From Chlorobiota bacterium (GTDB taxonomy: Bacteria; Bacteroidota; Ignavibacteria; OLB7): a stretch of DNA of 64,000 nt. Each line of letters begins with the position of its first letter. Within the stretch, counting starts at the first letter, position 1. The notes beneath the pieces are model-generated. The model made no database searches and was not told where the DNA came from. It worked only from the letters and a program-made list of their open reading frames with translations. Location: contig JADJXR010000001.1 of assembly GCA_016710285.1 (NCBI GenBank), forward strand, positions 3,086,955 through 3,150,954, in the 5' to 3' direction. Shown here one piece after another: positions 4,953 to 45,200 of the stretch. The translations under genes were made by a program, and so were the position numbers.

Positions 4953-4953
4953 A

Positions 4954-6060: not shown

Positions 6061-6061
6061 T

Positions 6062-7243
6062 TCAGGATTGTTCGTTTGCAAACATGAGAACCTCCTCAAA
6101 CAGCAATCGTTCCTCTGCCTCGGTTGCTGCTTTGGCGGCTTCTTCGGGGGTGGAGGCCAGCGCGGTGATATGCCCCATTTTCCGCCCACGCCGTGAACGC
6201 TCCTTCCCGTAAATGTGCAGATGCACGCTGGGATCCGCCAGCGTTTCTTCGTAATTGGCAACCGCACCGGACCCGTTATGTTTTCCCAAAATATTGACCA
6301 TTGCAACGCCCGGGGCGCGTAAATCGGTGCGACCCAATGGCCACCCCATCACTGCCCGAATGTGATTTTCAAATTGCGAGGTGACGCAGCCTTCAATCGT
6401 GTAATGGCCGCTGTTGTGGGGGCGCGGCGCGATTTCGTTTACCAACACTTCGCCGTCGCCGGTCAGAAAAAGCTCAACGCCAAAAATTCCAATTCCATGA
6501 ATAATTTCCACGGCGTGGCGGGCGTAGTCGCGGGCAAGGGTGGTGGCCGGTTCGCCTGCGCGGGCCGGGGCAAGCACCGTGCGGCAGATATGATGCTCCT
6601 GCACGGTTTCCACCACCGGGTACAACGCGGTTTCGCCATTTGCCCCCCGCGCAACCATCACCGCAAGCTCCTTCACAAACGGCACAAAGGCTTCGCAGTA
6701 TAATTCACGTGCTGGATTTCCCTTGGTGATTTTTTCCCAACCGATGGGAATATCCTCCGGTTTGCGGATCGTCGCGTTCCCGTAGCCGTCGTAGCCGTTG
6801 CGCCGGCTTTTCAGGATAAATGGATACCCGAATTGCTGGCCAAATGCTTGCGCGTCGCCGTGGGTTGCAACCGCACGGAAGGCCGCCACGGGAATTCCCG
6901 CATCGTCGAACGTCTGCTTCTGGATCAATTTATCCTGAATTTTCGCGACCGATGCCGCGCCAGGCCGCAATACAAACCCTGCCCGTTCAATCACCATTAA
7001 ATGGGCTTCCTCAATGAACTCACTCTCTAACGTGATAACGTCGCAGTTGCTGGCAAAATGGAGCAAGGCAATGTGGTCCGAAGGGTCGGCAACGGTTTCG
7101 CGGTGGGCAATTTGCCCGGCGGGTGAGTTGGCATGGTTTTCCATAATGTGGACTTTCATCCCAAGCTGGAATGCGGCGATTGCGGTCATCCGCGCAAGTT
7201 GCCCGCCGCCAAGAATGCCAAGTGTTGGAGGGTTGTAGATCAT
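6062..7243 (-). CDS. purK: N5-carboxyaminoimidazole ribonucleotide synthase (PurK, ATP-grasp).
   Basis: ATP-grasp PurK-like sequence along the whole length (GILGGGQLARM..., VLVNEIAPRPHNSGHYT). The start is probably MIYNPP. Confidence 0.85.
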   Translation of the reverse strand: MIYNPPTLGILGGGQLARMTAIAAFQLGMKVHIMENHANSPAGQIAHRETVADPSDHIALLHFASNCDVITLESEFIEEAHLMVIERAGFVLRPGAASVAKIQDKLIQKQTFDDAGIPVAAFRAVATHGDAQAFGQQFGYPFILKSRRNGYDGYGNATIRKPEDIPIGWEKITKGNPARELYCEAFVPFVKELAVMVARGANGETALYPVVETVQEHHICRTVLAPARAGEPATTLARDYARHAVEIIHGIGIFGVELFLTGDGEVLVNEIAPRPHNSGHYTIEGCVTSQFENHIRAVMGWPLGRTDLRAPGVAMVNILGKHNGSGAVANYEETLADPSVHLHIYGKERSRRGRKMGHITALASTPEEAAKAATEAEERLLFEEVLMFANEQS

Positions 7244-12215: not shown

Positions 12216-13814
12216 TTAGACCCCGCAGATGCTGACCCGCAGCCCAAGCGCCTCCATCGCGGCGGCTTTGGCGAACATTGCGGTGCGTGCGGCGGCGCGG
12301 CTTGGCGCGTAGGCAACTTGGATATGGTTCGATTTGTGGCGAGCCATCATCTGGTCGCGGCTTACTCCTTGGATCACCGCGTGCATGATTGGCCATTGGC
12401 TGGTGGTAAGCCGCCAACGCTCCTCGGTCTCCGCCGCCGGAAGCGCGACCACGTTGGCCAACCCCGTGTCGAAATTCAGCCGCCCGTTGGCAACAAACAC
12501 ACGGCTCCACACCACCCACCCGGGCTTGCTAATCCCCTTAACGGATCCGCCACCAAGATGGAAATACATCGGCGGCTGGCGTTCGCTGGTGGCCCCGGCG
12601 TATCCGTCAATAAAATGTGCCGGCGGGGCCGCGCCGCTGATCTCCAACACCCACACAAAATCGTTCACCCCGCCCCCCTTGTAATGCCGGCCCCAGCGAA
12701 GGTCGTGCAGCGTGGTCTCGGGGGGGAAACCAAGCTGCCGCCACAGTCGGTAGGTGACAAGCGCGTCCAACCCCGCGCACTCATCCACTTCGTTGAAATG
12801 CACCACGGCCTCGCCCGGGAACAGCTCCTGGGTAGTGCCTTCGCGATAGACCGGCGGGCGGTGGCTGTTGTTCAGGATTCCTTCGGCCAGATCGCTTGCG
12901 GGGGTAAGGTCCTTCAGCCCTTGCTGGTATTGGATGCCGATGGTGTCGCAGCCGAAATCATCGGCAATCCGCACCGCAGCGATGTACATCTTGCACTGCT
13001 CCAGAATCTGCCGCTCGGTCAGCTGGGTGGCTTCGTCGGTCCCAAGCTGGAAGGTCATCCCTTCGGCACGCAGCCATTCGTACACGCTGCGGGCCTCGGC
13101 CTCGGTAACGGTCAGCATTCGGGCATAGAGGGTGGATTGGCTTAGGCGTTCTTTGAAAACCCCGGTGGGGTGAAGCAGTTCGTCGGGGATGATGGCGTTG
13201 TACATCCCCATGCACCCTTCATCAAAAATCCCCATGATCGCTTTCCGCTTCCGAAGCTCGGCGGCAAACTTCTGCCCAACCCGCACCGCACGCCCCGGCG
13301 CTTCGGCGGGGTCGAATCGCCGAACGTGCGAGGTGTCGTGCTGTACCTTCCCTTTGCGAAGCCATTGGCGCAGGCCTTTCACAAAAAAATCATCGGTGAA
13401 GTGCTCGCTCCACAAAGTGCTGTAACGGATCCCGGCCTTCGTCAGCGAGGCGTTCAAGTTGAGCAGCCCCACCAAGCCTGGCCACATCCCGCTCCAGTTG
13501 GCAACCGTCAGGATTGGCCCCTTGTGGGTGAACAACCCAGCAAGGACGTGGTGGCTGTACTGCCACACCGCTATGGCAAGAATCAGCGGGGCATCGTTGG
13601 GGATGGATTGGAAGACCTTGATCCCATATCGCTGGCTGTCAATAAATCCATGCCCTTTTTCTGGATCAATCGGGTGGGCACGTTGCACGCGGTGGCCTTC
13701 CCGCTCCACAACGGCAATGATCTTCTGCTCCATTTCCGCTTGGGCAGCTTGGCAATTCTGGTTTGCGGCAAGCCGAAGATCGCCGCTGGCAACAAGGTAG
13801 ATGGTGGATGGCAT
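12216..13814 (-). CDS. L-fucose isomerase family (FucI/AraA-like) sugar isomerase.
   Basis: 532 aa. N-terminal TVANWSGMWPGLVGLLNLNASL and C-terminal WVLEISG...HFIDGYAGATS blocks resemble the FucI-like isomerase fold. The assignment is at family level only. Confidence 0.45.
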   Translation of the reverse strand: MPSTIYLVASGDLRLAANQNCQAAQAEMEQKIIAVVEREGHRVQRAHPIDPEKGHGFIDSQRYGIKVFQSIPNDAPLILAIAVWQYSHHVLAGLFTHKGPILTVANWSGMWPGLVGLLNLNASLTKAGIRYSTLWSEHFTDDFFVKGLRQWLRKGKVQHDTSHVRRFDPAEAPGRAVRVGQKFAAELRKRKAIMGIFDEGCMGMYNAIIPDELLHPTGVFKERLSQSTLYARMLTVTEAEARSVYEWLRAEGMTFQLGTDEATQLTERQILEQCKMYIAAVRIADDFGCDTIGIQYQQGLKDLTPASDLAEGILNNSHRPPVYREGTTQELFPGEAVVHFNEVDECAGLDALVTYRLWRQLGFPPETTLHDLRWGRHYKGGGVNDFVWVLEISGAAPPAHFIDGYAGATSERQPPMYFHLGGGSVKGISKPGWVVWSRVFVANGRLNFDTGLANVVALPAAETEERWRLTTSQWPIMHAVIQGVSRDQMMARHKSNHIQVAYAPSRAAARTAMFAKAAAMEALGLRVSICGV

Positions 13815-24804: not shown

Positions 24805-25632
24805 ATGGCAATTCGGTGTCTGTTTCCACTTCTCGCCCTCGCCATGCTGGCGTGGTATCCCGCTGCTGCGCAGAACAACGATCCATCGCCAAGCAACGAC
24901 TCGGCAATGGCGGTTGCGGCATCGGCTCCAATCCTTATCCCCATTGACACGTTGCGGTTCGGCAGCAAGCTGACGGCGATTGCTGGCGGAGCGTTCCCCA
25001 TGGGTGAGTATGCCGAAACAACTGGAGTGCGCCCCGGGTTCGCAACCCCAGGATTCTCCGCAGGGATAGAGTACACCGTCCACGCCGATTCGTTTGCGTT
25101 GCTGGTTTCGCCCGGGTGGGTTTCCACGTTGTTGGTTTCCGCCAACGGTTCCGATCAATCGGGGGTGAAGGCCGCGCTGGCGCAGGAGTTCAACATCCCC
25201 CCCGATGCCAACCCCATTGTTGAGGCCGGCCCCTGGGTCACGGCCTCGGTCCTGACCGGATTCGAGGGGAACTACCAACTGGCCAACAACTGGAGCATTG
25301 GCGTGCAGTCGCAGTTTGGGTTTGTGGTGGGGAGCAGTTCGTTGGTGAGATTGGCTTCCGAGCGCGGGGCAATCACGCAGCATTCCTCCATTGCCGCCGC
25401 GCCATGTTTTTCGGTTGGGGTGGTTTCTTCGTTCTGGAATCGGTTTGCGCTGGCCATGCGTTACTACCGGTCCACCATCACCTACGACATCCGCACCATC
25501 AACCCCGACGGAACCAGCAACGCCCTGTACTACGACCAACCATCGGACCTTCTTTCCCTTTACCTTGGCTACACCTTTGCCACCTTCCGCCACCAGACAC
25601 CACTGTTTGCCGAAGAAGTGGTGGAGGAGTGA
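24805..25632 (+). CDS. Hypothetical secreted/outer-membrane protein.
   Basis: Signal peptide MAIRCLFPLLALAMLAWYPAAAQ. Beta-rich, with an aromatic C-terminus. Confidence 0.35.
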   Translation: MAIRCLFPLLALAMLAWYPAAAQNNDPSPSNDSAMAVAASAPILIPIDTLRFGSKLTAIAGGAFPMGEYAETTGVRPGFATPGFSAGIEYTVHADSFALLVSPGWVSTLLVSANGSDQSGVKAALAQEFNIPPDANPIVEAGPWVTASVLTGFEGNYQLANNWSIGVQSQFGFVVGSSSLVRLASERGAITQHSSIAAAPCFSVGVVSSFWNRFALAMRYYRSTITYDIRTINPDGTSNALYYDQPSDLLSLYLGYTFATFRHQTPLFAEEVVEE

Positions 25633-25989
25633 GGGGGAGGAAACTGGAGAAGGGGGGAAGAAAGGAAGGGGAGATGTGTCGAGCCAACCTTTCTGAATCT
25701 TTTTATCTGATTTTTTTGTTCATCACCACCTACCATCTCCTGTTTGGGCGGAAGAGGTGGGGGCATGGCCACCAGCGCGCGGAGTCCCCTTCAGAACCTG
25801 CGCGAACCCTAGGCCGCTGCAACCCTATGCTTTGCGTAGGGTGAGTTGCTGATATTTCAAAGCACCGAACGTTCCCAAATCGTTTGGCCCACCTTGCTGC
25901 CCTCCCTTTTCTGTGAGTATTCTGTGAGTTCCCGTTGCCAGCTTTACCGCCACACAAATTCCAATCACCAACACAGGAGAGAGATCACC

Positions 25990-28900
25990 ATGAAGTTTTT
26001 ACGCTTTCTGCTTGCGCTGTGGGCTGTTGCGCTGGCGGGGATCACCACGCAGGGGCTGGCTTCCGGGTTGACCCCGGTTGCCGGGCATCCCCGAATCTTG
26101 CTGACCCCCACGGTGAAAACCACACTGACCGCAAAGAAAAACAGCAACCATCCAACATGGCTTGCGCTGAAGTCCAAAGCCGATGCGCTGCTGAACCAAA
26201 CCATCGTCCAGTGTAAGTACAACAACTACTCCAACTGGTACTCCAACTCCATCTATTTCGAGGGGAACGGCTCCGGCTGGATGCACGCGGCGTTCACCCT
26301 TTCGCTGGCGTGGCAAATCAGCGGCGACACGAACTACGCCAACAAAGCCGTGGCGTTGGCCGATGAAATTATCCGCGCCGATGCCGACCCGGACAACCAG
26401 GGAACGGGCAAATCCCCGATCACGCTGGACCGCTCCTACACCTCGCGCCATGTTGGCCCGGCAATCGCCGTGCTGTACGATTGGTGCCACTCCCGGCTTG
26501 ATTCGGCACGCAAAGCCAAGCTCCGTGCGGTGATGGTCAAATGGTTCAACCACCTGCGGAATGGCTCGGCCAGCAGCGATGTCTATCAAAAAAATGGCCC
26601 AGCCACCGGCGCGTGGTTCGGCTCGCATCTTAGCTGCGCCGCATGGATGGGATACGCCATTGCTGGCGACGACACCGCGTCGCAGCGGATGATTGACTGG
26701 GCACGCGCCCGGTTCGACGGCACTCAATCGGCAACGCTCTCCTCCAGCGATTACCCCACCACCTACCGGATGCAAGGCTTCACCGGGGGGATCAAGTCGT
26801 GGTTCGGTTCGCGCTGGGGCGTTCCTTCCACAACGCAAGGGGCAACCGGCGCGCCGATGAAAGGGGGAATCTTCCCGCAAGGTTGGTGGTACGGCAATGC
26901 CGAGTTCGGGCGGATGGTGGATTACATGCTGGTGGTGAAATCGGCAACGGGGGAGGACCTGCCGGGAATGTATCAAACATATCTGGCCGACATCTTCATA
27001 GCCCACCGCCAAGCCACGCTTCCGGGGAACCTGCTGATTGATCCCAACGGCGAGTGGCGCGGAAGCCAGGGGGCCGTTGTGGAGCGTGGGCTTCCCGCAC
27101 GGATTGCCACCGCGCTGGCTTCGGTCCCGAACGTTGGCGCGGCGGCGGCAACCTTTGCGTGGGATGAAATCCCACCCACTTCTTCCTCGGTGGCGGGCGT
27201 TAGCGTTGCGGCGTTGCAACCCTGGGAGGAGTTCCTGTACCGGAACACCGCAGGAAGCGGCGCAACGGTTGCGCTTCCCCTTGCCTACACCCCATTTGCG
27301 CCGAACTACCCAGCGGCCGGGGCCGGCAACGGAGCTATTCCATATTTCACCATGCGCTCTTCCTGGGGGAGCAATGCGGTCTGGGCAAGCGTGAATATGG
27401 GGGCGCAGGTGTATGATGAGTTCATGCATTATCAAGCCGGGCATATCGAGCTTGCAAAAGGGAACCACCGTCTGCTGATAAGCCCAACAACATGGAAAGG
27501 GGATTCCTCGGGATTAGGGGTCACCAGCTTGGGGCCGGTGATTAGCGACCACTCCGGCGCGAAAAACACTCTCTATTTCGATGACTTCGGCGACTACCAA
27601 TCCACAAGCTCGACCCGCGTTGGCGGCCAGGGACCGCACGGGAAGGATAAAGTTGTTGCCCAGGAGATGAACCCCAGCTACAGCTATATCAGTGCCGACC
27701 TTTCCACCGCCTACAACAACATGGACTGGCCACGTTCGGTGGGGGACACAACCAACCGGAAGCTGGAGTATTTCTACCGAAACTTCGTCTATCTGCGCCC
27801 GGCAAACTTGTTTGTGGTGTACGACCGCGTAAAAGCCGCCGCCAGCAGCAACGCCAACGGTGCCTACCGCAAGCGGCTGCGCTGGCATTTCCCAACCCAG
27901 CCCGTTGTTAGCGGAAGCAGCATCCGCGTGGATAACAGCGATGCCCGGCTGTGGATGCGGGCACTGCTTCCGGCAAGCCCAACAATCACCACCACCAGCT
28001 TGGTCAGCAACCCCGACAACACGTGGGGTTCGTGGCTGAACTATCTGTTCAGCAGCAAAACCTACCGCGCCGAAGTCAGTAATGCGGCCAACCCGCTCCA
28101 GCAGCCATTCCTAACGGTGATGCAGGCCGGAACCACATCCCTTGCGGAACCGACATCGGAGCTTTTCTACACCACTGATTCGTTGATGATTGGAACCACT
28201 ATCGAGCTTGCCGACGGGCGGGACTATGTGATGCTGTTCAACAACCGCCCCGGGCAAGTGCCGCAGCCAATCACCTACGCCTACTATCCCCTTGTTGGCT
28301 CGATCAACGGAACCCACACCCTGTGCGGGCTTGAGCCAAACACCGCCTACACTGTGGAGCTGCAAGGAACGTTTGTGGTGGTGGCCAAGGACCCAACCGG
28401 GGCGTTCACAACAACCGCCGCTGGGGTCCTGCAGTTCACCCCGCCCGGAGGCACGCCGCAAGGTGGCGGAGATGACGATGATGGGAACAACGGAGGCGGC
28501 GGAGATAATGGAGGTGGTGGAAACAATGGAGGCGGCGGAGATAATGGAGGTGGTGGAAACAACGGCGGCGGCGGAGACAATGGCGGCGGAGACAACGGCG
28601 GTGGTGGAGACAACGGCGGCGGCGGAGACAATGGCGGTGGCGGAAACAACAACGGCGGCGGAGCGATCATCGCTGGCCACCCGCGATTGCTGCTGACCCC
28701 GGCAATCAAGACCGCGCTGCTTGCGAAGGTCCAAGCCAACGACCCAACATGGACCGCGCTGAAAACCCGTGCGGACATTCTTCTGACCTATCCAATCACC
28801 CAGTACAAAACCGCAACCGCCTACAACTGGTTTGCCAACACCATCTTCTACGGCTATCAGGGGGAGGGGTGGTACAGCGATGTGATACCGCTGGCGTTTG

Positions 28901-31380
28901 CGTGGCAGATGACCGGCGACACCAACTACTGCAACAAGCTGCTGGCGATTGCCGACGAGTTCATCCGCGCCGAGTACGACCCGGCAAACCAGCCACCAAT
29001 CGGGCGTTCGCCGATGACGCTGGGGAACGCCTTCCCGTCGCGCTATGTTGGCCCGGCGGCGGCCATCATCTTCGATTGGTGCTACGACCACCTGGGCGCG
29101 ACCCGCAAAAACCAGATGGTGACGCTGTTCAACCGCTGGTTCGACTCGCTTCGGGTTCCTGGCGGAAGTGCTTACGAGAACAACGGACCATCGAACGGCA
29201 ACCACTACGGCGGCCACATGGCAGCCGCGGGGTGGATGGGCTACGCCAGCTACGGCGACAACCCACGCGCCCAGCATCTGATTGATTGGGCAATCGTCCG
29301 GATGGATGGCACGCTTACGCCAAACCTTGCCTCCACCGACATCCCCGCCAGCAACCGCAAACAAGATTTTGAGGGGAGCGTGCGGAACTACGTCGGCTCA
29401 ATCTGGGGAATCCCAAGCTCCACCCCGGGCATTTACGGCACGCCGTTCCGGGGCGGGCATAACTTCCAGGGGTGGGCCTACGGCAATGGCGAGTTCAGCC
29501 AGATGATTGACCTGCTTCAGGCAATGAAAACTGCTGGCGGACCAGACTTCTTCCAGCAATATCCGGGCTGGTTCAGCGGGATGTACCGCTCGCTTCGCCA
29601 TTCGCTGATGCCAAGCCGTTTTATGATTGACCCAATTGGCGATTGGGGGGGGAACAACGCCGTCGCAATCCAACCGGGGCTGCCGCATCGCTTGTCGTTT
29701 GTGCTGCAATCCACACCCGATGGACCCACTGCCCAGCATTTTGCCAACGTGGAAATGGCCCAGAACCACACCTGGAATTTCTACGCCCAAGATGTCCGCG
29801 TTATTGAGCTGCGCGAATGGGAAGCCTTCTACTACCAGGACTTCACCCGGCCCGCAACGCCAGCGGTGATGCCAACGTGGTACAACAACATCAACAGCGT
29901 AACGCCGAACGGCAGCAGCCCGAACGGCGCAATCCCATACTACATGATGCGGAGCAGTTGGGACACCGGAGCGGTGTGGGCATCGTTGCAAATGGGAAGC
30001 GCGAAATGGGGGGACCACCAGCATCTGCACGCCGGGCACCTGCATATCGTTCGCGGGCGGGATCAGCTTCTTATCAGCCCAAGCAATTGGAAAGGGGGAC
30101 CAACAGGGTTGGGAATTGTTGGCAACGGCATTGGCTACACCGATTACTCCGGCGTGAAGAACACCCTGTTCTTCGACGACTACGGCGACTACCAACGGAA
30201 GTCCAGTGGGAACATCGGCGGGCAAGATGTGTACGGATTCGACCGCCCGGTGGCCAACGAATTCACCGAGGATTACGGCTACGCCCGAAGCGATTTGGCA
30301 TCGGCTTACAACTTTGCGGGCTGGAACCCGGCAACGCAATCCAGCACCCAACTTTCCGACACCACACAGCGGAAGCTGGAGAAGTTCTACCGGAACTTCG
30401 TGTACCTGAAAGGTCCCGGAATTTTTGTCACGTACGACCAGATCAAGGCCAAAAGCAGCAACAACCCTTTGGGGGCTTATCGGAAGCATCTGCGCTGGCA
30501 TTTCCCGGACCAGCCAACAATCAACGGGAAAAGCATCCATGCCGAAAAAGGGGCCTCGCGCATTTGGATGCACACGGTGATTCCGGCAACCGTCGGGTAC
30601 ACCAAGTACAGTTTGCAGAACAGCAATCCAGACAACACCTACAACGATCCCAGCTTGAACTACCTGTTCCAAAGCAACACGTGGCGGGTGGAAGCGCGCG
30701 ACACACTGAACCCGCTGGAAATGCCGTTCCTGACGGTGATGCAAGTTGGGCCGGCGAACCTTTCGGAGCTGACCACCAGCGCGTTCGCCACCACCGACAC
30801 ACTGATGATCGGTTCCCGAATTATCACCGCAGCGGGGGAGGAGTATCTGGTGCTGTTCAATAACCGAGCGGGGACGGTTCCGCTGGCGATTGCTTCCACC
30901 AACTACCCGTTGGTTGGGGCAACCAGCGCAACCCATCTGCTGTGCGGAATGAAGCCTGCGGGGAAATATCAGATAGCCATCAGCAACGGCGTGGTGACGG
31001 TGGCGGAAAATCCCGCCGGAACGTTCACCGCCTCGGCTGGCGGAGTGCTGATGTTCCAGCCGTCGGCGGTTTCTGGCGCGGCAAAGGCTGTGCCCGGGGA
31101 AACCGGGGAACTGCGCGAATCGGGGCTTAGCCTACGCGTTTTCCCGAACCCCAGCAATGGCGCGGCCACCGTGGGTTTCCGCTTGCCGGAGTCGGGGAAT
31201 GTGAAGGTTCGGGTGCTGAATTTGTTGGGGGGAACGGTTGCCGATCTGCTGGACCGCCAGCTTCCGGCGGGCGTTCATGCGGTGGAATGGAGCGGCAAAG
31301 GGGAACCAGCCGGAACTTACCTTGTTGAGATTATTGCCGGCGCACGCCGCGACGTACAAAGACTGGTGCTAACGAACTAA
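25990..31380 (+). CDS. Giant secreted tandem two-module polysaccharide lyase-like protein (heparinase II/III / alginate-lyase-like alpha-toroid plus beta-sandwich, duplicated). It has a Gly/Asn/Asp linker and a T9SS C-terminal domain.
   Basis: Each ~800-aa module opens AGHPR(I/L)LLTP...W.ALK..AD.LL (HPRL motif as in heparinase II / alginate lyase N-termini) and closes with a beta-sandwich. The linker is GGDDDDGNNGGGGDNGGGG.... The C-terminus FPNPSNGAATVGF...GTYLVEII is a T9SS CTD. RBS aggagag lies upstream of the ATG at 25990. Confidence 0.5.
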   Translation: MKFLRFLLALWAVALAGITTQGLASGLTPVAGHPRILLTPTVKTTLTAKKNSNHPTWLALKSKADALLNQTIVQCKYNNYSNWYSNSIYFEGNGSGWMHAAFTLSLAWQISGDTNYANKAVALADEIIRADADPDNQGTGKSPITLDRSYTSRHVGPAIAVLYDWCHSRLDSARKAKLRAVMVKWFNHLRNGSASSDVYQKNGPATGAWFGSHLSCAAWMGYAIAGDDTASQRMIDWARARFDGTQSATLSSSDYPTTYRMQGFTGGIKSWFGSRWGVPSTTQGATGAPMKGGIFPQGWWYGNAEFGRMVDYMLVVKSATGEDLPGMYQTYLADIFIAHRQATLPGNLLIDPNGEWRGSQGAVVERGLPARIATALASVPNVGAAAATFAWDEIPPTSSSVAGVSVAALQPWEEFLYRNTAGSGATVALPLAYTPFAPNYPAAGAGNGAIPYFTMRSSWGSNAVWASVNMGAQVYDEFMHYQAGHIELAKGNHRLLISPTTWKGDSSGLGVTSLGPVISDHSGAKNTLYFDDFGDYQSTSSTRVGGQGPHGKDKVVAQEMNPSYSYISADLSTAYNNMDWPRSVGDTTNRKLEYFYRNFVYLRPANLFVVYDRVKAAASSNANGAYRKRLRWHFPTQPVVSGSSIRVDNSDARLWMRALLPASPTITTTSLVSNPDNTWGSWLNYLFSSKTYRAEVSNAANPLQQPFLTVMQAGTTSLAEPTSELFYTTDSLMIGTTIELADGRDYVMLFNNRPGQVPQPITYAYYPLVGSINGTHTLCGLEPNTAYTVELQGTFVVVAKDPTGAFTTTAAGVLQFTPPGGTPQGGGDDDDGNNGGGGDNGGGGNNGGGGDNGGGGNNGGGGDNGGGDNGGGGDNGGGGDNGGGGNNNGGGAIIAGHPRLLLTPAIKTALLAKVQANDPTWTALKTRADILLTYPITQYKTATAYNWFANTIFYGYQGEGWYSDVIPLAFAWQMTGDTNYCNKLLAIADEFIRAEYDPANQPPIGRSPMTLGNAFPSRYVGPAAAIIFDWCYDHLGATRKNQMVTLFNRWFDSLRVPGGSAYENNGPSNGNHYGGHMAAAGWMGYASYGDNPRAQHLIDWAIVRMDGTLTPNLASTDIPASNRKQDFEGSVRNYVGSIWGIPSSTPGIYGTPFRGGHNFQGWAYGNGEFSQMIDLLQAMKTAGGPDFFQQYPGWFSGMYRSLRHSLMPSRFMIDPIGDWGGNNAVAIQPGLPHRLSFVLQSTPDGPTAQHFANVEMAQNHTWNFYAQDVRVIELREWEAFYYQDFTRPATPAVMPTWYNNINSVTPNGSSPNGAIPYYMMRSSWDTGAVWASLQMGSAKWGDHQHLHAGHLHIVRGRDQLLISPSNWKGGPTGLGIVGNGIGYTDYSGVKNTLFFDDYGDYQRKSSGNIGGQDVYGFDRPVANEFTEDYGYARSDLASAYNFAGWNPATQSSTQLSDTTQRKLEKFYRNFVYLKGPGIFVTYDQIKAKSSNNPLGAYRKHLRWHFPDQPTINGKSIHAEKGASRIWMHTVIPATVGYTKYSLQNSNPDNTYNDPSLNYLFQSNTWRVEARDTLNPLEMPFLTVMQVGPANLSELTTSAFATTDTLMIGSRIITAAGEEYLVLFNNRAGTVPLAIASTNYPLVGATSATHLLCGMKPAGKYQIAISNGVVTVAENPAGTFTASAGGVLMFQPSAVSGAAKAVPGETGELRESGLSLRVFPNPSNGAATVGFRLPESGNVKVRVLNLLGGTVADLLDRQLPAGVHAVEWSGKGEPAGTYLVEIIAGARRDVQRLVLTN
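28470..28670 (+). repeat. In-frame tandem 15-nt DNA repeats encoding the Gly/Asn/Asp-rich inter-module linker.
   Basis: ggcggcggagataatggaggtggtggaaacaatgga... is reiterated about 12 times. Confidence 0.55.
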
Positions 31381-31449
31381 CGAAGGCACTGGTTGGTGGA
31401 CCCGGAGGAATCGCTGGCAACAGCGGTTCCTCCGGTTGTTATTGGCCCG

Positions 31450-31670
31450 CCTACAGGGTAGCCGCCCCGACCTTCGTCGGGATTGATAAAAGGTCTTTAG
31501 CCTTCGGTGTATCATCTTGGCGAGAAGACTGAGCCCCGATGAATCGGGGCCGCTACCTGTGGGATCGCCACGGCTCCGCCCGCCACAGGGTAGCCGAAGG
31601 TCTTTAGCCTTCGGTGTCATCCTTCAGTGCTATCACTGGGCCCCGATGAATCGGGGCCGCTACCTGTGAG
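31450..31670. repeat. REP/MITE-like repeat locus C (two copies of the core in inverted/direct arrangement).
   Basis: ggtagccgccccgaccttcgtcgggattgataaaaggtctttagccttcggtgt, then gagccccgatgaatcggggccgctacctgtg, then ggtagccgaaggtctttagccttcggtgtcatcc, then gggccccgatgaatcggggccgctacctgtg. Confidence 0.6.
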
Positions 31671-34012
31671 GGTGTTCCCCGTTTTCTTCTCACCCCCATT
31701 GCCACCGCGCCGCCGATTGATAGAAGCAGCGTTGCAATCGTGATCCATTTTCCGGTGGAGTAGGCCGATGACTCGAACCGCAGCTCAACCGTGTGGTTCC
31801 CCGCCGGAACGGCGATTGCCCGCAGCGAGTAATCGCCTGTCAGAAGCTCCGTCTCCGCGCCGTCAACATAAACGTGCCAGGCCGGATACCAGACCTCGCT
31901 CAGCAGTAAAATCCCTGCTTTGTCGGTCTTCACACCCACCTCAATTCGTGCGGGGTCGTAGTGGCTGATGGTGGCGGTTCCGCTTCCGGTTCCGTCCGGT
32001 TTCACGCTTGGCTCTTTCTCCAACAACACCGTTTTGGAAAGATCAATTTCGCCGCTTCCCAGCATCTTCTTGATTGCAGCGGTGTCGGCCACGCGGTAAT
32101 CGTACAGCATCCGTGCGTGGGGGAAGGCGGTGGGGCGTTCGGCAAGCCCTGCGCTGCGGGTGGCGGCATCAACCCGCACGGCGTAGCGGATGTTCATCAG
32201 GTCGTAGGCGGGTTCGTAGTTCCCGGGTTGGCCGGCGGCTTGGGCCGGGGGAACGCGCCGCGCAAGCAGCAGCGGGTTGTAGCCTTCGAACAGCATGATC
32301 TGGCTGTACGGCCCTTGGTTCCGTTGCATCAGCATCGCCCCCGATTCCCGCATCTTCACGCGGAACAACCGGTCGGGGGCTTGGGCTTTCAGCATCGCGA
32401 ATTGCTCATCGTTCCGCTGGTAGATCTGCTCTGGGTTGTTCGGCGATGGGTTCTGTTCCGCGCCAAAAATGAACAGGTCAATCGTCCCAAGCAGCAGCAG
32501 CGCCACGGCCACCCCGGCCCCGGGCATCTTCCGTTTCAGCCCGGCCCAAAGCACCGCAACCGCGCCAAGCCCAATCAGAATTGGCGTGATCCCCGTTGCC
32601 CCCGTTGCCTTTGCCACTTCGGCGGGGGCGTTGAACATCCCCCCCAGAACTCCGCTTACCGAAAGCAATCCAATCAGCACAATGATCCCGCCGGCAATCC
32701 ACGTGGTCCGCATCAGCGCGGGCGATTCGCCGTCGTCGTCGGGGCGGATTGCACGCTCCAGCCCAACCCCCGCAAGCAACGCCGCGCCCAATCCAAAAAA
32801 CAGCATCATGCGGGTGGGGACGCGGAAGCTCCCGAACAACGGCAGCTTGTTGATGATTGGATGGAGGAAGAAGCTATCCCCCAAAGCATACAGAAGGCTG
32901 AACAACGCCATCCCAGCAACAAACCACCGGAGCGCGCCCAGCCGTTTGGAGGCCAGCCCTATCGCGGCCAACAGCAGCGTCACAACGCCAACGTAGATGC
33001 AGGTCTCCCAGAAGTAGAACGTCTCGGGGCGGTACCAATACTCCATCCCTTGCGGCGTGTTTCCGGTGACAACGCCAAAGAATTTTGGAACAACCAACGT
33101 CACCAAATGGCCAATGGTGATGGAGCCTTCCAGCGATTTCTCGTAACTGCTGGCGGCGCGTTCGCTAAGCCCGGCAAGCTCCTGGGCGGGAAGCAGTTGG
33201 ATTGCAAAAATGCCCGCGCCAATGGCCACCACCAGCAGGGCAATCGCCGCGCCTTTCCAGGCGGTGGCTTTCCGCTCGGCATCGCTTCCGCGAAGGTCGG
33301 GGAGCAGAAGAAAAAGGGTGAAGCAGGCCATGTAGAAAACCATAAACAGTGCCGATTGCGGGTGCCCACTCAGCATCGTCAGCCCAAGAATAATTCCCGA
33401 CAGAATGCCGTGCAGCCAACTCCGCTGGGTTACGCCACGGTGGAAGAACATCAGCACAAAGGGGAACCAGGCAAGGTGGTAGATCATGTTCGGGTGGATC
33501 ATGTGGGCAACCATCATTCCGCACAGGCCCCACGCAATGCCGCTGAAGATTCCGCCCCATTGGCCAATCCCTAACTGGCGTGCAAGTTTCCACGCGCCGA
33601 TCATCGCCACCAAGTAGTGGGCAACCACAAAAAATTGCGCCAGCCGCGCCGTCAGGTCGCCGCCGCTGAACAGGTACATCAGCAGGTTGCCGGGGTAGAA
33701 GAAGCCGTTTTGGAGATCGGCCAAAAACGGCATTCCGCAGAAGGCGTAAGGGTTCCAAAACGGTATCACCCCTTGGCTGAAGTTCCGCGCAGCAAAGACT
33801 TCGTGGGGGAAGAATTGCTCCAAAAAATCTTCCCACAAATATCCGCTCCCGAACAGAAAGGGGCTGAAAAACAGGAGTGTAATCAGGATGAAAATGCCGT
33901 AGGCAACGTAGTTGGGCGGCTCGTATAACGGCTTCGATGCGGCGGCTGCACGGCGTGGATTGCGGACGGTGAGGGGTTCAATCTCCCGTTTTTTTGACGG
34001 CTGTTTTGCCAT
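31604..34012 (-). CDS. YfhO-family integral membrane protein (putative membrane glycosyltransferase).
   Basis: About 800 aa with many transmembrane segments, the N-terminal motif FWNPYAFCGMPFLADLQNGFFYP and a C-terminal periplasmic domain. The last ~22 codons overlap REP locus C. Confidence 0.6.
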   Translation of the reverse strand: MAKQPSKKREIEPLTVRNPRRAAAASKPLYEPPNYVAYGIFILITLLFFSPFLFGSGYLWEDFLEQFFPHEVFAARNFSQGVIPFWNPYAFCGMPFLADLQNGFFYPGNLLMYLFSGGDLTARLAQFFVVAHYLVAMIGAWKLARQLGIGQWGGIFSGIAWGLCGMMVAHMIHPNMIYHLAWFPFVLMFFHRGVTQRSWLHGILSGIILGLTMLSGHPQSALFMVFYMACFTLFLLLPDLRGSDAERKATAWKGAAIALLVVAIGAGIFAIQLLPAQELAGLSERAASSYEKSLEGSITIGHLVTLVVPKFFGVVTGNTPQGMEYWYRPETFYFWETCIYVGVVTLLLAAIGLASKRLGALRWFVAGMALFSLLYALGDSFFLHPIINKLPLFGSFRVPTRMMLFFGLGAALLAGVGLERAIRPDDDGESPALMRTTWIAGGIIVLIGLLSVSGVLGGMFNAPAEVAKATGATGITPILIGLGAVAVLWAGLKRKMPGAGVAVALLLLGTIDLFIFGAEQNPSPNNPEQIYQRNDEQFAMLKAQAPDRLFRVKMRESGAMLMQRNQGPYSQIMLFEGYNPLLLARRVPPAQAAGQPGNYEPAYDLMNIRYAVRVDAATRSAGLAERPTAFPHARMLYDYRVADTAAIKKMLGSGEIDLSKTVLLEKEPSVKPDGTGSGTATISHYDPARIEVGVKTDKAGILLLSEVWYPAWHVYVDGAETELLTGDYSLRAIAVPAGNHTVELRFESSAYSTGKWITIATLLLSIGGAVAMGVRRKRGTPSQVAAPIHRGPVIALKDDTEG

Positions 34013-34158
34013 GGGTCGGAACGAAAATGAAGATGAAAGACCTGGTTCTGGGGAACGGACAACCACGGATAATCGCGGCCTTTGCGCGTGCGCCAACAAG
34101 AGTGTGAGTTTGCACAAAGGCCGCCAAATATACAGCCCAATGGTTAAGTTCGCGCCCT

Positions 34159-36545: not shown

Positions 36546-39500
36546 TCAGCGAAGAACCACCACCGGCGTTGCGGCCCACCCGTAATCGGTTTCCAACACC
36601 AGCTGGTAAACCCCGCTGGCAAGTTCGGGAATTGGCAGTTGCAGATGGTGGTGTCCGGCGGCAACCACGTGCGGCGCGGTTTGGTGTTGGATGGTTCCAT
36701 CGGCAGCCACAAGGCGGAAGCGGAGTGTTGCCCAATCGGGAGCATCTACCTCAACGGTGATCTGGTCGCGCGCGGGTTGCGGGCTGATTTTCACCACGCG
36801 TGGTTGCGCCACAAACCGCAGCCCCGCTTCCCAGCAATCGCCCAACAGTGTGAAGTTCCCGTTGACGGTGTCGGCACTCACGTTCCATTTGTTCCAAGCG
36901 AACGATTGGAACTGCAACGGAGTGATCTTCCGGTCCCCAAACATTGCGGTGCAGAACAGGGTGGCAATCGTGTCGGCGTTCGCATCCGATAGATGCCCCA
37001 CAAGCTCCACCGTCGCATCGCCAGTTTTTGGATTGGCCTTATAGGTTGCCGCCCCCCCCGCCGCGCTGTCGAACCGGAGCAGTGCCGTGCTGAAACTGAT
37101 GCTGGTGCGGAAGGTGTCGGGCGCGATTCGGTTGAACGCTGCGCGGTCGGCCAGCTGCACCACAATCGGCAGCCGCACCGGCTGGTTGACGTGCGCCGAT
37201 GCCTCGGGAAGCCGCACGGTGGTTGCCGTTCGCTCCCCCGATTCGCCGCTGGCATAGATGGTTGCGGCAACCCCGCATCTTCCATCAACGATTTCCAACG
37301 TCTGGCTGAATTGCCCGGGCGCGGTTGGAAGAAACCGCACGTTCAGCAACGCGGTTTGCCCGGGCAACGGGTTGGCCGGGGTTGCGCCGGTGATCTGGAA
37401 CTCCCCAGCACTCACCGGAAGATTCCAAGCCAGCGGTGCTGTTCCGGTGTTCACCACGCGCAGCGTGAAGTTGGCGGCTTCGTTCGGCGGATGATTTCCC
37501 GCCACCACAACGCTGTCAAGCAACAGGAACCGGATGGCGTGGCGATACCCGCGCAGCTGGATCGTGTCGTGGCCGCTGGGACCGTTGTTTTTCAGGACCA
37601 CTGCCCCCCGTTTCTCCCCCTCCGAACCTGGGCGGAACCCAATGGCCACAACACCTTTCTGGCCAACCGGAACGCGCAACGGCAACGCCCCTTCAATGCG
37701 GAAATTTCCTTCGGGATCGTTGATGATTGTTGCCGAATCAATCGCCAATTCTGCGCCGCCATTGTTCTCAATCTCCATCATCGCACTCTTCGCGCTCTCG
37801 GCCACGCACCACAAGGTGTCGAACGCGGGGGGGGTGATGGTGGCGATTGGTTGATTCCCGGAAGCCAGCAGTTTCACCCTTGCGGAGTCGGCGCAATTCG
37901 GCTGGTATCCAAAGGCGATTTCGGCATTGAACGTGGTGTTGAACGGAAGCACCAGCAACCGAATATGCAGCCGGACCGAGTCGCCCGGGGCAACGATTCG
38001 GGGGAGCTGCCCATCCAGAAATTTGAACCACGCTTTGTCGTTCCCGCCAATCGCTTCCCCCTGCACCGTTGCCGGAATCGTCCCGCGGTTCCACAACGCC
38101 ACGAAGGTGTCAACCGGGGCGGCGGCTCCGGTGCGGAACGTGATGTTGGGGACCTCGGCAATCAGCATGATGGAGTCGCGGCGGCCACGAAGCGCGATGG
38201 TTGCTGGGCTGGTGGGGTCGTTGGAAACCACCCGCAGGGTCGCCGTTTTTTCGCCGAAGGTTGCCGGGGCAAGCCGCACCGGAACTTGGATTGCCCCCTG
38301 GGGCGGAACCGTGACCGGCCCGCTTGCCGTGGGGATGCTTAGCAGTTGGAAGCCTTCGTTGTTGTCGGCAAGCTCAATCGTGGTGATGGAAAGGTCCACC
38401 GTGCCGACGTTCCTCAGCTGCAGGATGGTGTCGCGTGCGGCTGCGCCGCAATCAATCGCCGGAAGCGCAACGGGCGCAACCGCACCCAACGTGGGGATTG
38501 CCGCGCTCCGCCCGGTAACGATTGTGCTGGCGCTCCCGCACCCTTGTTGCAGCGTGAACCGAAGCTCGGCGCTGGCGGCTTTCCCTGGCTCAGGGAAGAA
38601 GCGTAAAAGAAGGCTCAGGCATTCCCCGGGGGCCAGCGCAAAAGCCCCGCCGCCGCTGGCAATCTGGAACGGGCCATCGCTTGGGATAATCTCTGCTTCC
38701 CCGCGCAAGGTGTCGGTTCCGGTGTTGCAGATGCTGCGGGCAACGGTGGTGTCGAAACGGGTTCGCCCTTCGGGCTGGTTCCCCATATCTATCACGCTTT
38801 GGTGGGTGAATTGGCAGGGCTGGACCCCAATGCCAAAGATGCTTGCGGTGTCGCGTGCGCCGCAGCTTCCGGCCACCACCAGCCAAGCGCGAATCGTGTC
38901 AAGGCGGGTGGGGCCAAAGCGGAGCCGCAGCGGCAGCGATTCCCCGGGATTGATTGTTGCTGGCAGTCCGGAAGGAACCACGCTGAACATCGCTGCGTCG
39001 GGACCGATTGCCCACGCCGAATCCACTTGCAGAGGCCTGGTCCCCGGGTTGCGAATGGCGTTGGGGAAATCGGCCTGGCCAAACTGATAGCGGAGAACAA
39101 CCCCGGCAAACCCAGCATCCCCTTCCAACAACATCACCTGCTGGCGTTCAACGGAAAAGAAGCTGCGGGAGGAATCTTGCAGCGGCTCGATAGGAAGATC
39201 AATCGCCCGAACCCGGTGGTTGTTCAGGTCGCAGAAGTACAGGCGGTTATCGGCCACAATGGGGGCGGTGGGGTAGTTCAGTTGGGCAGCCGACGGGTCC
39301 CCTTTGTCGCCGCTGAATCCCGGCGTTCCGGTTCCGGCGATTGTGGTGATGATGCCGCTTTGCAGGTCCAGCCGGCGGATCCGGTGGTTGGCCGCATCGG
39401 TGATGTAGGCAAACCGCCCGGCCACAGCAATCCCGGAAGGGCGGTCCAGCCGTGCGGCGGTGGCGGGACCTCCATCGCCACCAAATCCTCCAACCCCTCC

Positions 39501-41713
39501 GTCGGCAGTTCCGGCAACGATTGCCGCTTCACCAGTGGAAAGGGTAATCCGGCGGACGACGTTCGCTGCGGTCTCCACCACAAACAGCTCGTCGCCGCGC
39601 AACGCCACCGATGTTGGATTCCCCAAACGGATGCTCCGCGCAGCGGTGGAATCCCCGGGGACCATTGGGCCGGCAATGGTGGTGATGGTTCGCGTCCGCA
39701 GGTCAATTGCCCGTATGCGGTCCACCCCATCGGAGCCGAACAGCGTGGGGTCCAGGCCCGGGCCGATTCTTCCCGCCGCCAGCGCCTGCGGGGAGCTGAA
39801 CGTTGCCGACACTCCATCGCCGCCGTCGCCGCTGTTTCCGGGCTGGCCATTTCCGGCAATGGTTCCAATCGTCCTTGTGCGCCGGTCAATCGCCCTGACC
39901 CGGTTGTTTCCGGCATCGGCAAGGTAGATGCGCTGGGCATCGGCCAGCGCGTGGCGTGGGTTGCGAAGCTGCGCCAGCGTTGCCGGACCTCCATCGCCGC
40001 TGGACCCTGGTTGCGCGGTTCCCGCCACGGTGGTAATCACCCCTGTTGGAAGATGGACTTGCCGGATGCGGTGCGCCGCTTCCTCGGTAATCAGCAGGAT
40101 GCTATCGCTGATGGAAATCCCAGTGGGGCTCCAAAGTTTTGCCCCCAACGCCGCGATGCTATCGCCGCCGTTCCCGCCGCCGGCCACCGTTGTGATGATG
40201 GAGCGTGGGTCGGGGATGGTGGAAACGCGGATGCGATACGCCCCCGCCATTGGCGGTTTCCACGTGTACGAATAGCCCTGCACCGAAGTGATTGCCCGCC
40301 AGATACGATCGGCCCCGGAGTACTCCAGCCGCACCGGTGTCCCCGATGGAACGCCGGCCCAGAAAATCGGCACCGAATCGCAAATGGTGAACGATTCGCC
40401 GCCGGTGGGGCTAAGCAGCCGCAGGGTCCCCGTTGGTTGCGGTTTGGGCGTTCCCCCCACAACCACAACCGGCGCGCTGGGGCAGGGGAGCGTTCCGAAC
40501 GTCACGGTTCCGGTGTCGGGGACCGTGGGGAATGCCGGGGCGTAGCGGATCACCACCGTGCGCCCGCTGTCGCGCTGCAGGGTGAACGGCGGCGGCGCGC
40601 CCCCCCAATCGGCAATGCTGAACGGCTTCCCGGAAAGGAGCAACGCGCTTGCCACCACCACCGAATCGTGCCGGGCGGTGATCCGAATGGAAAGATCGCG
40701 GCTGCCCCCCGCCGGAACCGTTCCGAACCAGAGGAAGGTGTTGCTGGCCTCCAGCAATCCATTCCGAACGGGGGGGGCAAGGTAGTTGCGGCGGTTCTGC
40801 AGCTTCAGCCGAACCAGCGTCATCACAAGGTCGCGCCCCCGCTGGATTGCGCCGCAGCCAATGGGGCTAATCCACTGAATCTTGCATGGCCGATACCCGC
40901 CAACGCCCAACCCAATGCCGCGCATTGCCGCGCGCGATTCCTCCTCGGTCGTCACCATGTCGAACCACTCGCCCCCGGTTTGCTCAACAACGCGCCGCAT
41001 CTCAAAAGGGATTCTGGCGCGGATGATGACCGCATGAATCTCAATCTTCTGGGCCTTTGCCAGCTTGATGATGGAGTCGGCATCCGATTGCTGGATGGAG
41101 GAGCCATCGGTCACCAGAAGGATCATTTTGCGGGTGGCTGCGGGAACGGTTTTGAACGATGCGATCGCGCCGGCACCATCCTCCAGCAACGCGTTTGCGG
41201 TGTTGGTTCCGCCGGTGTGATACAGCAATCCAAGGCTGCTGGTGATTGGCTCCGCCGTGCCGATAAAACCGGTTTCGGTGGTGGGAATGTTGTGGTAGGA
41301 GGTCAGCCCAATGGTGTTCCCGGTGGAGAAATTGAAGTTGTTGGTGAAGTCAATCATGCCGGAAATGGCCAGCGTTAATTTCCCGTTCCCCATGGATCCG
41401 CTGCGGTCGGCAAGAATCCGAATGGCGGTTTTCTGGGGTGGGGTCTGCGGCGGGCAGGTGGGGAAAGGATGGTTGCAACCGGCGCGCCGTTCTCGGTGAT
41501 GCTGAAATCTTGCGGGGTCAATCCCTGAACCACATCCCCGTTGGCATCCAACGCAATAAACCGCGCCGTCACCAGCGGGAACGCGGTGATGTCAACATCG
41601 AACAGATCAAACCGCTGCGCGCTGGCCGCCGGTGGCACAAGGGCAACCAGCCCGCCACACACCAACCAGCAGAGCAGTGGCATCACGTTCCGAAGAATAA
41701 GGCAGATGGGCAT
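36546..41713 (-). CDS. Giant secreted adhesin-like protein (vWA domain, NHL-repeat beta-propeller, multiple Ig-like domains, T9SS CTD). Paralog 1, with a 1-nt frameshift near 41455-41470.
   Basis: The N-terminal ORF 41375-41713 (signal peptide plus start of the vWA domain) and the 36546-41393 ORF join if one C is added in a C-run, giving ...TILSPTCPPQTPPQKTAIRILADRSGSMGNG. This parallels QCPPPTDAGPASVVLVNDHSGSM in paralog 2. NHL repeats (GDGGPA...HR(I/V)R). C-terminal CTD is ISPQPA...SGVYQLVL. Confidence 0.6.
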
Positions 41714-42262: not shown

Positions 42263-45200
42263 TCATCGAAGAATCACCACCGGCGTTGCTGCCCATCCGT
42301 AATCGGTTTCCAACACCAGCTGATAAACTCCGCTGGAAAGATTAAGAACTGGTAGCTGCAGATGGTGATGCCCGGCGGCAACCACCTGCGGCGCGGTTTG
42401 GTGTTGGATGGCTCCATCAGCAGCCACAAGGCGGAAGCGGAGCGTTGCCCAGTCGGGAGCATCCACCTCAACGGTGATCTGGTCGCGCGCGGGTTGCGGG
42501 CTGATTTTCACCACGCGTGGTTGCGCCACAAACCGCAGCCCCGCTTCCCAGCAATCGCCAACAATGGCAAAGGTTCCGTTGACGGTGTCGGCACTCACGT
42601 TCCACTTGTTCCAAGCGAACGATTGGAACTGCAACGGAGTGATCTTCCGGTCCCCCAGCAACGCCGTTCCAAGCAGGGTTGCCAGTGTGTCGCTGTTGCG
42701 GTAATCGCCGGCGATGGTGAGCGTCACCTGGCCCGTGGTTTTGTCGCGGACCTGCGAGACCAGCTGGGCACCAATCACCGAATCGCACCGCAGGATTGCG
42801 TTGCTGAAGGAGATTGTGGTGCTGAAGGAATCGGGCGCGATCTGTTGGAACGTCGCAGGGTCGTGTATCCGAAGCGTGATTGGGAGCAGCACCTGGTGCC
42901 CCACGTAGGCCGATGCCACCGGAAGCGTCACCTGGGTGGAGGTCTGCCGGCCCGAACGCCCGAACAACGCCAGCGGCAGCGATTGATCGCAAAGTTTTTC
43001 GGCCACCAGAATGCTGTCGGCAACAATACCATCGGCGGCGGGCGCAAAGCGGATGGTGAGCGTTGAAGATTCCCCAGGCTGCACGATTGGCGGCGCGGCG
43101 GAAACAATGGTGAACGCCCCAACCGAGCGCGGCACATTCCATTCAATCGGGAAGGTCCCGGTGTTGGTGGCGGTGATTGTTTGCTGGGCCGCTCCGCCGC
43201 TGGGGAGCAATCCAAAATCAATCGTTTGTGCCGAGAGTATGAAGCTGATGGTCTGTTTGATCCCCACCAATGGGACCCGAATTGCGGTGTCGGCACCGTC
43301 GTTCACCAGCACGGCGCGGGCCAGCGTCACCCCGTTGCTGCGGGGGCGGAACTGCGCCGTAATCGTTTGCGTGGCAAGGGGGGGAAGGGTGATTGGCGGC
43401 GCGCTTGGCAGCCGCAGCGTGAACTCGCCGTCGGGGTCATCTTCGATTCGTATTTCGGTAATCGTCAGCGGGTCGGCCCCTTCGTTCGTAATCTGGAAGG
43501 TCCCTTCGGTCATGGTGTCGCGGTCGCAAACCAGTTGGCGGATGTTTGGGGTTGTGGCCGCCAACAGCGGTCGCGAGCCGAGCGTGTTCAGGGCAACCCG
43601 CAGCGTATCTGGGCCGCAATTTGGGCTGAAGGCCAGCCGTAATTCCGCTTGGAAAATCGCCCCCGCCGAACGCTGCAACGCGCGCACAGCAAACCGCGCG
43701 GAATCCCCCGGCAGGATTGCCCGAGGCGTTTGCCCTGGCATCAGCAAAAACTTGCTTGCATGGTTCCCAACAATGCCCGCATCGGTGATGGAAATCGGCA
43801 AGGTTCCGGTGTTCCACACCACCACGAACGTATCCACCGGGAAGCTGGCTGCGGGGTGGGTAAACGTCAGCGAGCCTTGCTCGGCACGTGCGCCGATGGT
43901 GTCGCGCTGGCCGGTGAGTGGGATTGCAAAGGGGCTGGCGGGGTCGTTTGATATCACCCGCAGCACGGCCCCTTTTGTGCCAGCCGTTGCTGGATTGAAC
44001 CGCACCCGCAACGTGTCGCTTCCGCCGCCAGGGATCACCATTGGCGCGGCTGGGGTTGGCGGGTTCAGCAGTGCGAAGCCTTGATCGGCAGGAAGGATGT
44101 CGGCATTGGTGATGCTAAGCGGGATGTCGCCCAGGTTCTGCACGGCAATGATGGTGTCGTGCGGGGCGGCGGTGCAAACCGTTGTGGGGAATCCCACGCC
44201 AGCAACCGAGGCAAGCCGCTGCGGCGCAAGCCCGCGCCCGTACAGCGTTGTGGAAGCGTATCCACATTCGGTTGGAATGTTGTACTCCAATTCCGCCGTG
44301 ATCCTTCCCGACGCAAGGGGCGCGAACCGCACCTGCACGTTTAGGCAATCCCCAGGCTGCAACGTAAACTTCCCGCCGGTGGAAAGAAGCCGGAACGCTC
44401 CGTTGGGCGGATTCAACTCCAATCGGCCCGAGATTGGTGCGGACCCGGTGTTGCACAGCGGGACGGTCAGCACCGTATCCTTGGCTTGGTTGCCAAGCAC
44501 GATTTCGCCAAGCTCGGCCAGCGGGGTGAAGGTAAGGCCACAGGGGAGAAGGCCTTCGCCGCGAAGCGCAAGGGTGTCGGCAATTCCGCAAGGGCCAAAG
44601 ATCACCAGCGTTGCCGAAAGCGTCCCGGCGCGTTGTGGGAAGAACCGAAGCTCAACAGTGCGGCGGTCGTTGGGGTTCAGGATGTCCGAAGTCAACCCCG
44701 ATACGCCTTCGAACGAGGCGGAGTCGGGGCCAACAATGGCGAACGAGTCAATGGCGGCGGCAACGCTGCCAACATTGCAGATGGTTTGCGGCAGCAACGT
44801 GTCGCGCCGGCTGCCGATTGCTTGGCGGCCAAAATCCACCGTGCGGTTCGGGGTCCAGGGGCGAAGCAGGATGGAGGGGCGTGCAACCGTGAATGCTTGG
44901 CTGTTGCTGTCAACGCCGGCATCGGTGGGAAGCTGGAACGCGCGGACGCTGTTGTTCCGAACATCGCAGAAATAGAGCGTGCCGTTGTACACCAGTGGCG
45001 ACATCGGGAAATTGATCTTGCTTTCGTTGGCAAGTTTCCCTTCGCCGCTGTAGCCGGCAACCCCTGTTCCCGCCACCGTTCTTGTTGCTCCGGTCAGCAA
45101 GTTCACCCGAAGAATCCGGTTGTTGCTGGCATCGGTGATGAATAAGTTTTGGCCAACAACCGCCACCCCCGTTGGCGACCGCAGTTGCCAATTGCTGATT

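Follow-up and report, generated by a model that had tools for sequence, protein, structure and literature searches.

We analyzed a 64,000-nucleotide stretch of contig JADJXR010000001.1 from a Chlorobiota bacterium (the window), and focused on a plus-strand gene for a predicted exported protein made of two related modules. The open reading frame (ORF) spans 25846..31380, and an internal ATG at 25990 gives a complete coding sequence (25990..31380, from the ORF list and its translation) of exactly 1,796 aa plus the stop codon, in agreement with a sequence-only reading made before this analysis. Record GCA_019695125.1 (contig JAIBAR010000001.1), in which the analysis placed the window, has this gene call too. 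A scan with this single protein found only two close orthologs, both with two modules and at 87–93% identity (loci L001 and L002, from metagenome-assembled genomes (MAGs) labelled Chlorobiota and Armatimonadota); the exact window protein was not present in the clustered collection. The start Met is common to the L001 ortholog, and the L002 ORF as listed begins at an upstream GTG and contains the aligned Met and the signal peptide.

Five segments make up the protein, all encoded on the plus strand: a Sec signal peptide (aa 1–24, 25990..26061); module 1, which we term type A (aa 26–824, 26065..28461); a flexible Gly/Asp/Asn-rich linker of 65 aa (aa 825–889, 28462..28656); module 2, which we term type B (aa 890–1716, 28657..31137); and a type IX secretion system (T9SS) type A C-terminal sorting domain (CTD; aa 1717–1796, 31138..31377; TIGR04183, PF18962). 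BLASTP of aa 26–824 against aa 890–1716 gave 358/801 identities (45%; 710 bits, E = 0), and the AGHPR motif recurs at aa 31 and aa 895, near the start of each module (VAGHPRILLTP...PTWLALKSKADALL in module 1 and IAGHPRLLLTP...PTWTALKTRADILL in module 2), which confirms the internal duplication of ~800-aa units noticed earlier. The linker was recognized from its sequence and with Tandem Repeats Finder, by which its DNA is an imperfect 18-nt tandem repeat array (28487–28663; period 18, 9.2 copies). The three orthologs differ in its length, a pattern suggestive of slippage in the repeat. A terminator-like hairpin found by pattern scan (31402..31435, +; 15-bp stem with 10 G-C pairs) lies 22 nt past the stop codon, and the gene that follows (31604..34117, minus strand) is oriented convergently, so the coding sequence is the last in its own transcription unit.

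The signal peptide was identified by inspection (MKFLRFLLALWAVALAGITTQGLA followed by SG, with cleavage predicted between GLA and SG); it has a K/R n-region, the hydrophobic core LLALWAVALAG and an A-x-A-like site, and it is kept in the orthologs. At the other end, the last 77 aa match the T9SS type A sorting domain at a borderline score (TIGR04183, 23.2 bits against a cutoff of 23); PF18962 on the same C terminus scores 21.7 bits, under its cutoff of 27. FPNP and GTY motifs are present in this domain, PF18962 is also found in 13/55 family members, and the CTD scores higher in relatives, for example 36 bits in P0094, a 3,063-aa protein discussed below. The window holds a second T9SS cargo, a 451-aa GH43/GH32-like beta-propeller glycoside hydrolase (2864..4219, minus strand; PF18962, 25.8 bits), which supports T9SS use, and no T9SS machinery genes lie within the 64 kb. 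Together, signal peptide and CTD point to export, as the sequence-only reading had proposed.

Fold, remote homology and catalytic residues

AlphaFold2 models were built for each module with an alignment of 59 relatives, and both were confident (module 1, pLDDT 90.3 and pTM 0.92; module 2, pLDDT 88.6 and pTM 0.91). In each module ~12 main helices (aa 15–393) are followed by beta domains, and both modules are modelled with the fold that marks the heparinase II/III and alginate-lyase superfamily, an (alpha/alpha)-toroid joined to a beta-sandwich. When the models were compared with the PDB by Foldseek, the top match was heparinase II (HepII; 2FUQ) for module 1 (E 1.1e-27, TM 0.64/0.68) as well as for module 2 (E 6.5e-26), with TM scores of 0.61–0.68 and 16% identity over both modules. 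The next ranks were taken by polysaccharide lyase (PL) family 15 (Atu3025, exoHep), PL35 GAGases, PL17, dermatan sulfate epimerase 1, PL33, PL39, PL12 and PL40; the top ~40 PDB chains (Foldseek probability 1.00) are PL21, PL15, PL35, PL17, PL33, PL39, PL12 and PL40 lyases and dermatan sulfate epimerase.

Sequence profiles led to the same neighborhood. A profile of the family matched HepII in the PDB at E 3.1e-23, a PL35 chondroitinase (9o3q) at E 1e-7 and a PL17 lyase (8bdd) at E 2e-5, and hhalign against a PL21 alignment built from HepII relatives gave a probability of 99.9% (E 2.3e-33, 21% identity). In a phmmer search of the PDB, module 2 alone gave a weak heparinase II match (E 0.0037), in which its DHQH aligned with the NHQH of HepII, and module 1 gave no meaningful match. 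The NCBIfam scan returned HepB (NF045571) at E 9.7e-14 and 50.2 bits. The earlier suggestion of a heparinase II/III or alginate-lyase resemblance, with each unit ending in a beta domain, is thus upheld at the level of fold by the models, Foldseek, the family profile and hhalign, and the toroid was recovered from each module separately.

The closest characterized relative is HepII/HepB of Pedobacter heparinus (PL21; 2FUQ, 2FUT, 3E7J), the best structural match to both modules and the best profile match. It shares with them a three-part layout of alpha-helical toroid, central beta-sheet domain and C-terminal beta-sandwich, and with module 2 also the equivalents of its catalytic His202, Tyr257 and His406 and an HQH motif; unlike HepII, the window gene is tandem-duplicated and fused to a T9SS CTD. 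PL15 exo-lyases (the Atu3025 oligoalginate lyase, 3A0O/3AFL, and BIexoHep, 6LJA) are the second-best structures (E 1e-20 to 1e-26, TM ~0.58–0.64) and have the same His/Tyr/His arrangement with an Asn or Arg neutralizer (PMC12088678, PMC7904915), but their sequence similarity to the family is marginal (profile E 0.01–0.08) and they carry an extra N-terminal domain that the family does not have. The PL35 GAGases, PL17 Alg17c-type lyases and PL39 alginate lyases share the fold, and the profile matches to 9o3q (PL35) and 8bdd (PL17), weak yet significant, fall in the N-terminal helical domain; however, their third domain is absent or arranged otherwise, their similarity is below that of HepII, and their glycosaminoglycan and alginate substrates are not implied for the window protein.

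Several features set the protein apart from PL21 itself. Genuine HepII relatives carry PF18675 (HepII_C) with PF07940 (Hepar_II_III), and PF16332 (DUF4962) too where the N terminus is covered; the Pfam scan found none of the three in the window protein. The NCBIfam score is far below the HepB cutoff of 600 bits, so the equivalog level of the HepII family is not reached, and identity is 16–21%. In the profile alignment the HepII Glu205 column is Ala in the window protein and G/A/C across the family; of the HepII Zn ligands His408 is kept, Asp425 is replaced by Ser and His451 by Lys, in columns that are variable over the family modules; and the spacing from the catalytic His to the Tyr is ~40 residues longer than in HepII. 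On these grounds we treat the protein as belonging to a distinct clade beside PL21, with PL21 as the closest known family, and not as a PL21 member. The polysaccharide-lyase assignment of the sequence-only reading therefore stands as regards fold and remote HepII homology; since no Pfam PL model is significant, membership in a named PL family is not established.

The family is small, with 93 clusters in a set of 5.8 billion proteins and, at E <= 0.001, 432 cluster representatives out of 1.8 billion; no Pfam or NCBIfam model covers it. Most members are single modules of 820–930 aa, and those with names are called "hypothetical," T9SS or MYXO-CTERM domain proteins, or repeat proteins. Their sources are MAGs of Kapabacteria, Ignavibacteria, Acidobacteria and Caldilineaceae, as well as metagenome contigs, at least one of them from bioreactor sludge.

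In HepII the key residues are His202, Tyr257 and His406, with Glu205 as neutralizer (PMC7904915, PMC12088678). The equivalent residues have been tabulated for PL12, PL15, PL17 and PL39 (PMC12088678), and mutation of the three equivalents to Ala left exoHep with almost no activity (PMC7904915). We fixed the HepII numbering through a close HepII homolog (P0327) and placed the window residues by hhalign. His202 corresponds to H1076 in module 2 and H213 in module 1 (local confidence ~8/9), Tyr257 to Y1164 and Y301 (8–9/9), and His406, which was also aligned by phmmer, to H1343 in module 2 and F478 in module 1; the local posterior at the His202 and Tyr257 positions is about 0.8–0.9. In the segment numbering used for the family, H1076, Y1164 and H1343 of module 2 are H187, Y275 and H454. 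We also considered reading Asn1071-His1072 as the Asn-His dyad of PL15/PL39; this other register is disfavored, as hhalign pairs His1076 with His202 at a local confidence of ~8/9.

Conservation was assessed over 149 proteins, which contribute 154 full modules. The Tyr was found in 153/154 of these, including both window modules, a conserved Asn five residues before the first catalytic His in 147/154, His187 in 137/154 and His454 in 136/154 (in the window, only in module 2); several Arg are invariant. Module 2 further keeps N1071, Y956 and D1358, and the complete His/Tyr/His plus Asn set is found in module 2 and ~130 single-module relatives. We take Asn1071 as the likely carboxylate neutralizer in place of the absent HepII Glu205.

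Divergence of module 1 and its interpretation

Module 1 retains H213 and Y301, and has A208, W209, F478, G92 and H493 where the family has N, Y, H, Y and D. Besides the His406 equivalent (F478), the four other lost residues, among them the Asn of a 95%-conserved column, are each at least 90% conserved in the family. To put these changes on a common scale, we used the 69 columns conserved at 90% or more, defined from single-module proteins only: module 1 matches 58/69 and module 2 matches 66/69, compared with 67.6 +/- 1.3 (minimum 63) for 77 close single-module relatives. The Asn is missing only from N-terminal modules of multi-module proteins, namely those of the window protein, L001, L002, the fragment P0076, P0094 (modules 1 and 2) and L007.

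P0094 and the Kapabacteria MAG locus L007 resemble the window protein in having N-terminal type A module(s), one C-terminal type B module, a G/N-rich linker and a T9SS CTD. Their type A modules show the same five residue losses as window module 1, and their modules are 47–51% identical to those of the window. They differ from it in that a right-handed beta-helix-like domain (P0094 aa ~1640–2146, no Pfam match) separates type A from type B, and P0094 has two A modules; the L007 gene (6260..13058) is broken by a scaffold gap of Ns. In a neighbor-joining tree the six type A modules form one clade, whose sister clade consists of the C-terminal type B modules, which indicates that the duplication is old and was a single event. 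All six type A modules are without Y67, N182, Y183, H454 (the His406 equivalent) and D469. The replacements vary by lineage (G/S/N, A/T, W/S/E/P and F/Y/G, in that order), and at D469 the substitute is a basic residue in every case; P0094 module 2 is additionally without the catalytic Tyr. The helical domain has a pI of 8.96 in module 1 and of 6.20 in module 2.

Against the two orthologs, the ratio of nonsynonymous to synonymous substitution rates (dN/dS) was 0.09–0.13 for module 1 and 0.07–0.09 for module 2; restricted to the helical domain, the values were 0.08–0.13 and 0.04–0.05, respectively. Relaxation of module 1 is concentrated in the helical domain, yet the module is under purifying selection. 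Pseudogene-like decay of module 1 was considered and ruled out by this dN/dS, by a frame that is intact in three genomes and by the confident fold.

Building on the architecture, fold, homology, residue pattern, selection and module phylogeny established above, we lean toward the interpretation that the protein is an exported HepII-related enzyme in which module 2 is a lyase for a uronic-acid-containing polysaccharide and module 1 a pseudo-lyase that serves as a binding module. The protein would cross the inner membrane by means of its Sec signal peptide and pass through the T9SS by means of its type A CTD. Module 2 (aa 890 to ~1700) would be the catalytic unit, predicted to carry out beta-elimination with Tyr1164, together with His1076 and His1343, as its catalytic set, while Asn1071 would neutralize the substrate carboxylate. 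Module 1 (aa 26–824), an ancient duplicate whose active site is degenerate, has most likely ceased to cut. On the simplest reading, it represents an abandoned catalytic site in a domain kept for another job; most plausibly it would act much like a carbohydrate-binding module, holding the polymer that module 2 cleaves or a related anionic one, tethered via the flexible Gly/Asp/Asn linker.

Several points weigh against this interpretation. The five losses in module 1 were placed by sequence alignment, and the His202 register is moderately confident (hhalign 5–6/9 global, ~8/9 local, or ~0.8 posterior). The Pfam scan of the whole protein returned no lyase domain, and among 55 family members it gave only weak PF07940 matches in 8 (best E 3.8e-4) and a weak PF16332 match in 1. 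A literature search for a characterized PL21-like new family gave no match and no characterized member. No uronate-catabolism, SusC/D or sulfatase genes and no polysaccharide utilization locus occur in the window or in L003, L004, L005 and L007, so that the substrate is not indicated by context; nothing in the analysis points to heparin, alginate or ulvan. Finally, module 1 keeps the equivalents of His202 and Tyr257. A beta-domain His is dispensable in PL8 and PL5 lyases, and residual or altered catalysis in module 1 is conceivable.

This last point leads to the view of the sequence-only reading that there are two catalytic units, possibly of different specificity. Module 1 would then act through Tyr301 and His213, as in PL8 and PL5, and its retention of family-invariant Arg, Asp and Gln alongside the two catalytic residues, its dN/dS of ~0.1 and its intact fold speak for this. 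However, its His406 equivalent is Phe, at one of the three positions where Ala leaves exoHep nearly inactive (PMC7904915, PMC12088678), and the candidate neutralizer Asn is Ala. The lineage-specific replacements among type A modules resemble abandonment rather than a new conserved site, and a sister module, P0094 module 2, has lost the catalytic Tyr itself. We consider it rather unlikely that both modules are active lyases, and the claim of two catalytic units is doubtful, and probably wrong for the N-terminal unit.

Conversely, neither module might be catalytic, and the protein could be a cell-surface adhesin or lectin that holds anionic polysaccharides with two lyase-derived binding domains. 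T9SS type A CTD cargo is often anchored to the cell surface, and the lack of a characterized family member in the literature search and of catabolic genes in the loci inspected is compatible with such a role. Yet module 2 and ~130 single-module relatives keep the full His/Tyr/His plus Asn set under strong constraint, and the dN/dS of 0.04–0.05 in the module 2 helical domain is hard to explain without catalysis, which makes a purely adhesive protein improbable. Least probable, in our estimate, is a non-degradative enzyme such as a polymer-level uronate C5-epimerase, which would use the same fold and His/Tyr/His chemistry in the manner of dermatan sulfate epimerase 1. The human enzyme (6hzn) is a strong structural match (E 5e-17 to 2e-19, TM 0.54–0.62), and the convergent gene downstream encodes a GT-C-type YfhO/PMT_2 glycosyltransferase-like protein. 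Every closer match by sequence and by structure is a lyase, however, T9SS export suits the degradation of external polymers, and the YfhO adjacency is kept only in L002, between orthologs ~90% identical, and not in L001, L003, L004, L005 or L007.

Beyond the window protein, the lyase and pseudo-lyase interpretation might extend to the family as a whole. As a tentative proposal, the family would be a new PL family sister to PL21, in Kapabacteria/Chlorobiota-type bacteria, Ignavibacteria, Acidobacteria and Caldilineae, and the duplicate that arose in one lineage would have become a pseudo-lyase binding module, retained N-terminally to the active module across at least three architectures (A-B, A-beta-helix-B and A-A-beta-helix-B) and targeting an anionic polymer, possibly a matrix exopolysaccharide. 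If true, this would add an uncharacterized clade to the heparinase-II-like lyases and show clearly, in a natural protein, how a catalytic lyase domain can be retired and reused for binding. Such a case is relevant to CAZyme annotation, in which it is routine to score tandem "catalytic" domains as two activities. It would also bear on how uncultured T9SS-bearing Kapabacteria/Chlorobiota- and Ignavibacteria-type bacteria attack anionic exopolysaccharides; the practical value as a new lyase specificity is potential only.

Genomic surroundings

Upstream of the lyase-like gene lie recG and then, immediately adjacent, an ORF for a 275-aa protein with a signal peptide and no Pfam match (24805..25632, +). 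L001 and L002 do not have this ORF there; instead, the opposite strand encodes a 236-aa protein of cytoplasmic appearance, and the upstream side is therefore a synteny breakpoint. Downstream, the window contains the convergent YfhO/PMT_2-like membrane protein gene and also xseA. The rest of the window is housekeeping, besides the GH43-like T9SS hydrolase and two giant VWA/NHL/Ig proteins, and family members in four other loci likewise stand among unrelated genes.

The only leads from these loci are of two kinds. In L004 a PfkB-family sugar kinase gene (12475..13305) shares 4 nt with the 3' end of the gene for family member P0060; this single locus is the sole hint toward sugar-acid catabolism. 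In two unrelated loci, L005 (7672..9426) and L007 (4116..6158), a gene for a TPR plus GerE (LuxR-type) protein lies directly upstream of the family member and could encode a dedicated regulator; the window does not have this arrangement.

Elsewhere in the window, a segment at 4236..6306 (minus strand) has a low GC content (0.455, against ~0.59 elsewhere) and carries a DUF4276 gene overlapping an AAA_21/OLD-like ATPase gene, a pair that looks like horizontally acquired defense-type genes. The two giant proteins are encoded next to each other on the minus strand (36546..41393 and 42263..47425; 1,615 and 1,720 aa); with their VWA, NHL and ASH/HYDIN-type Ig repeats, they are probably surface-exposed or secreted.

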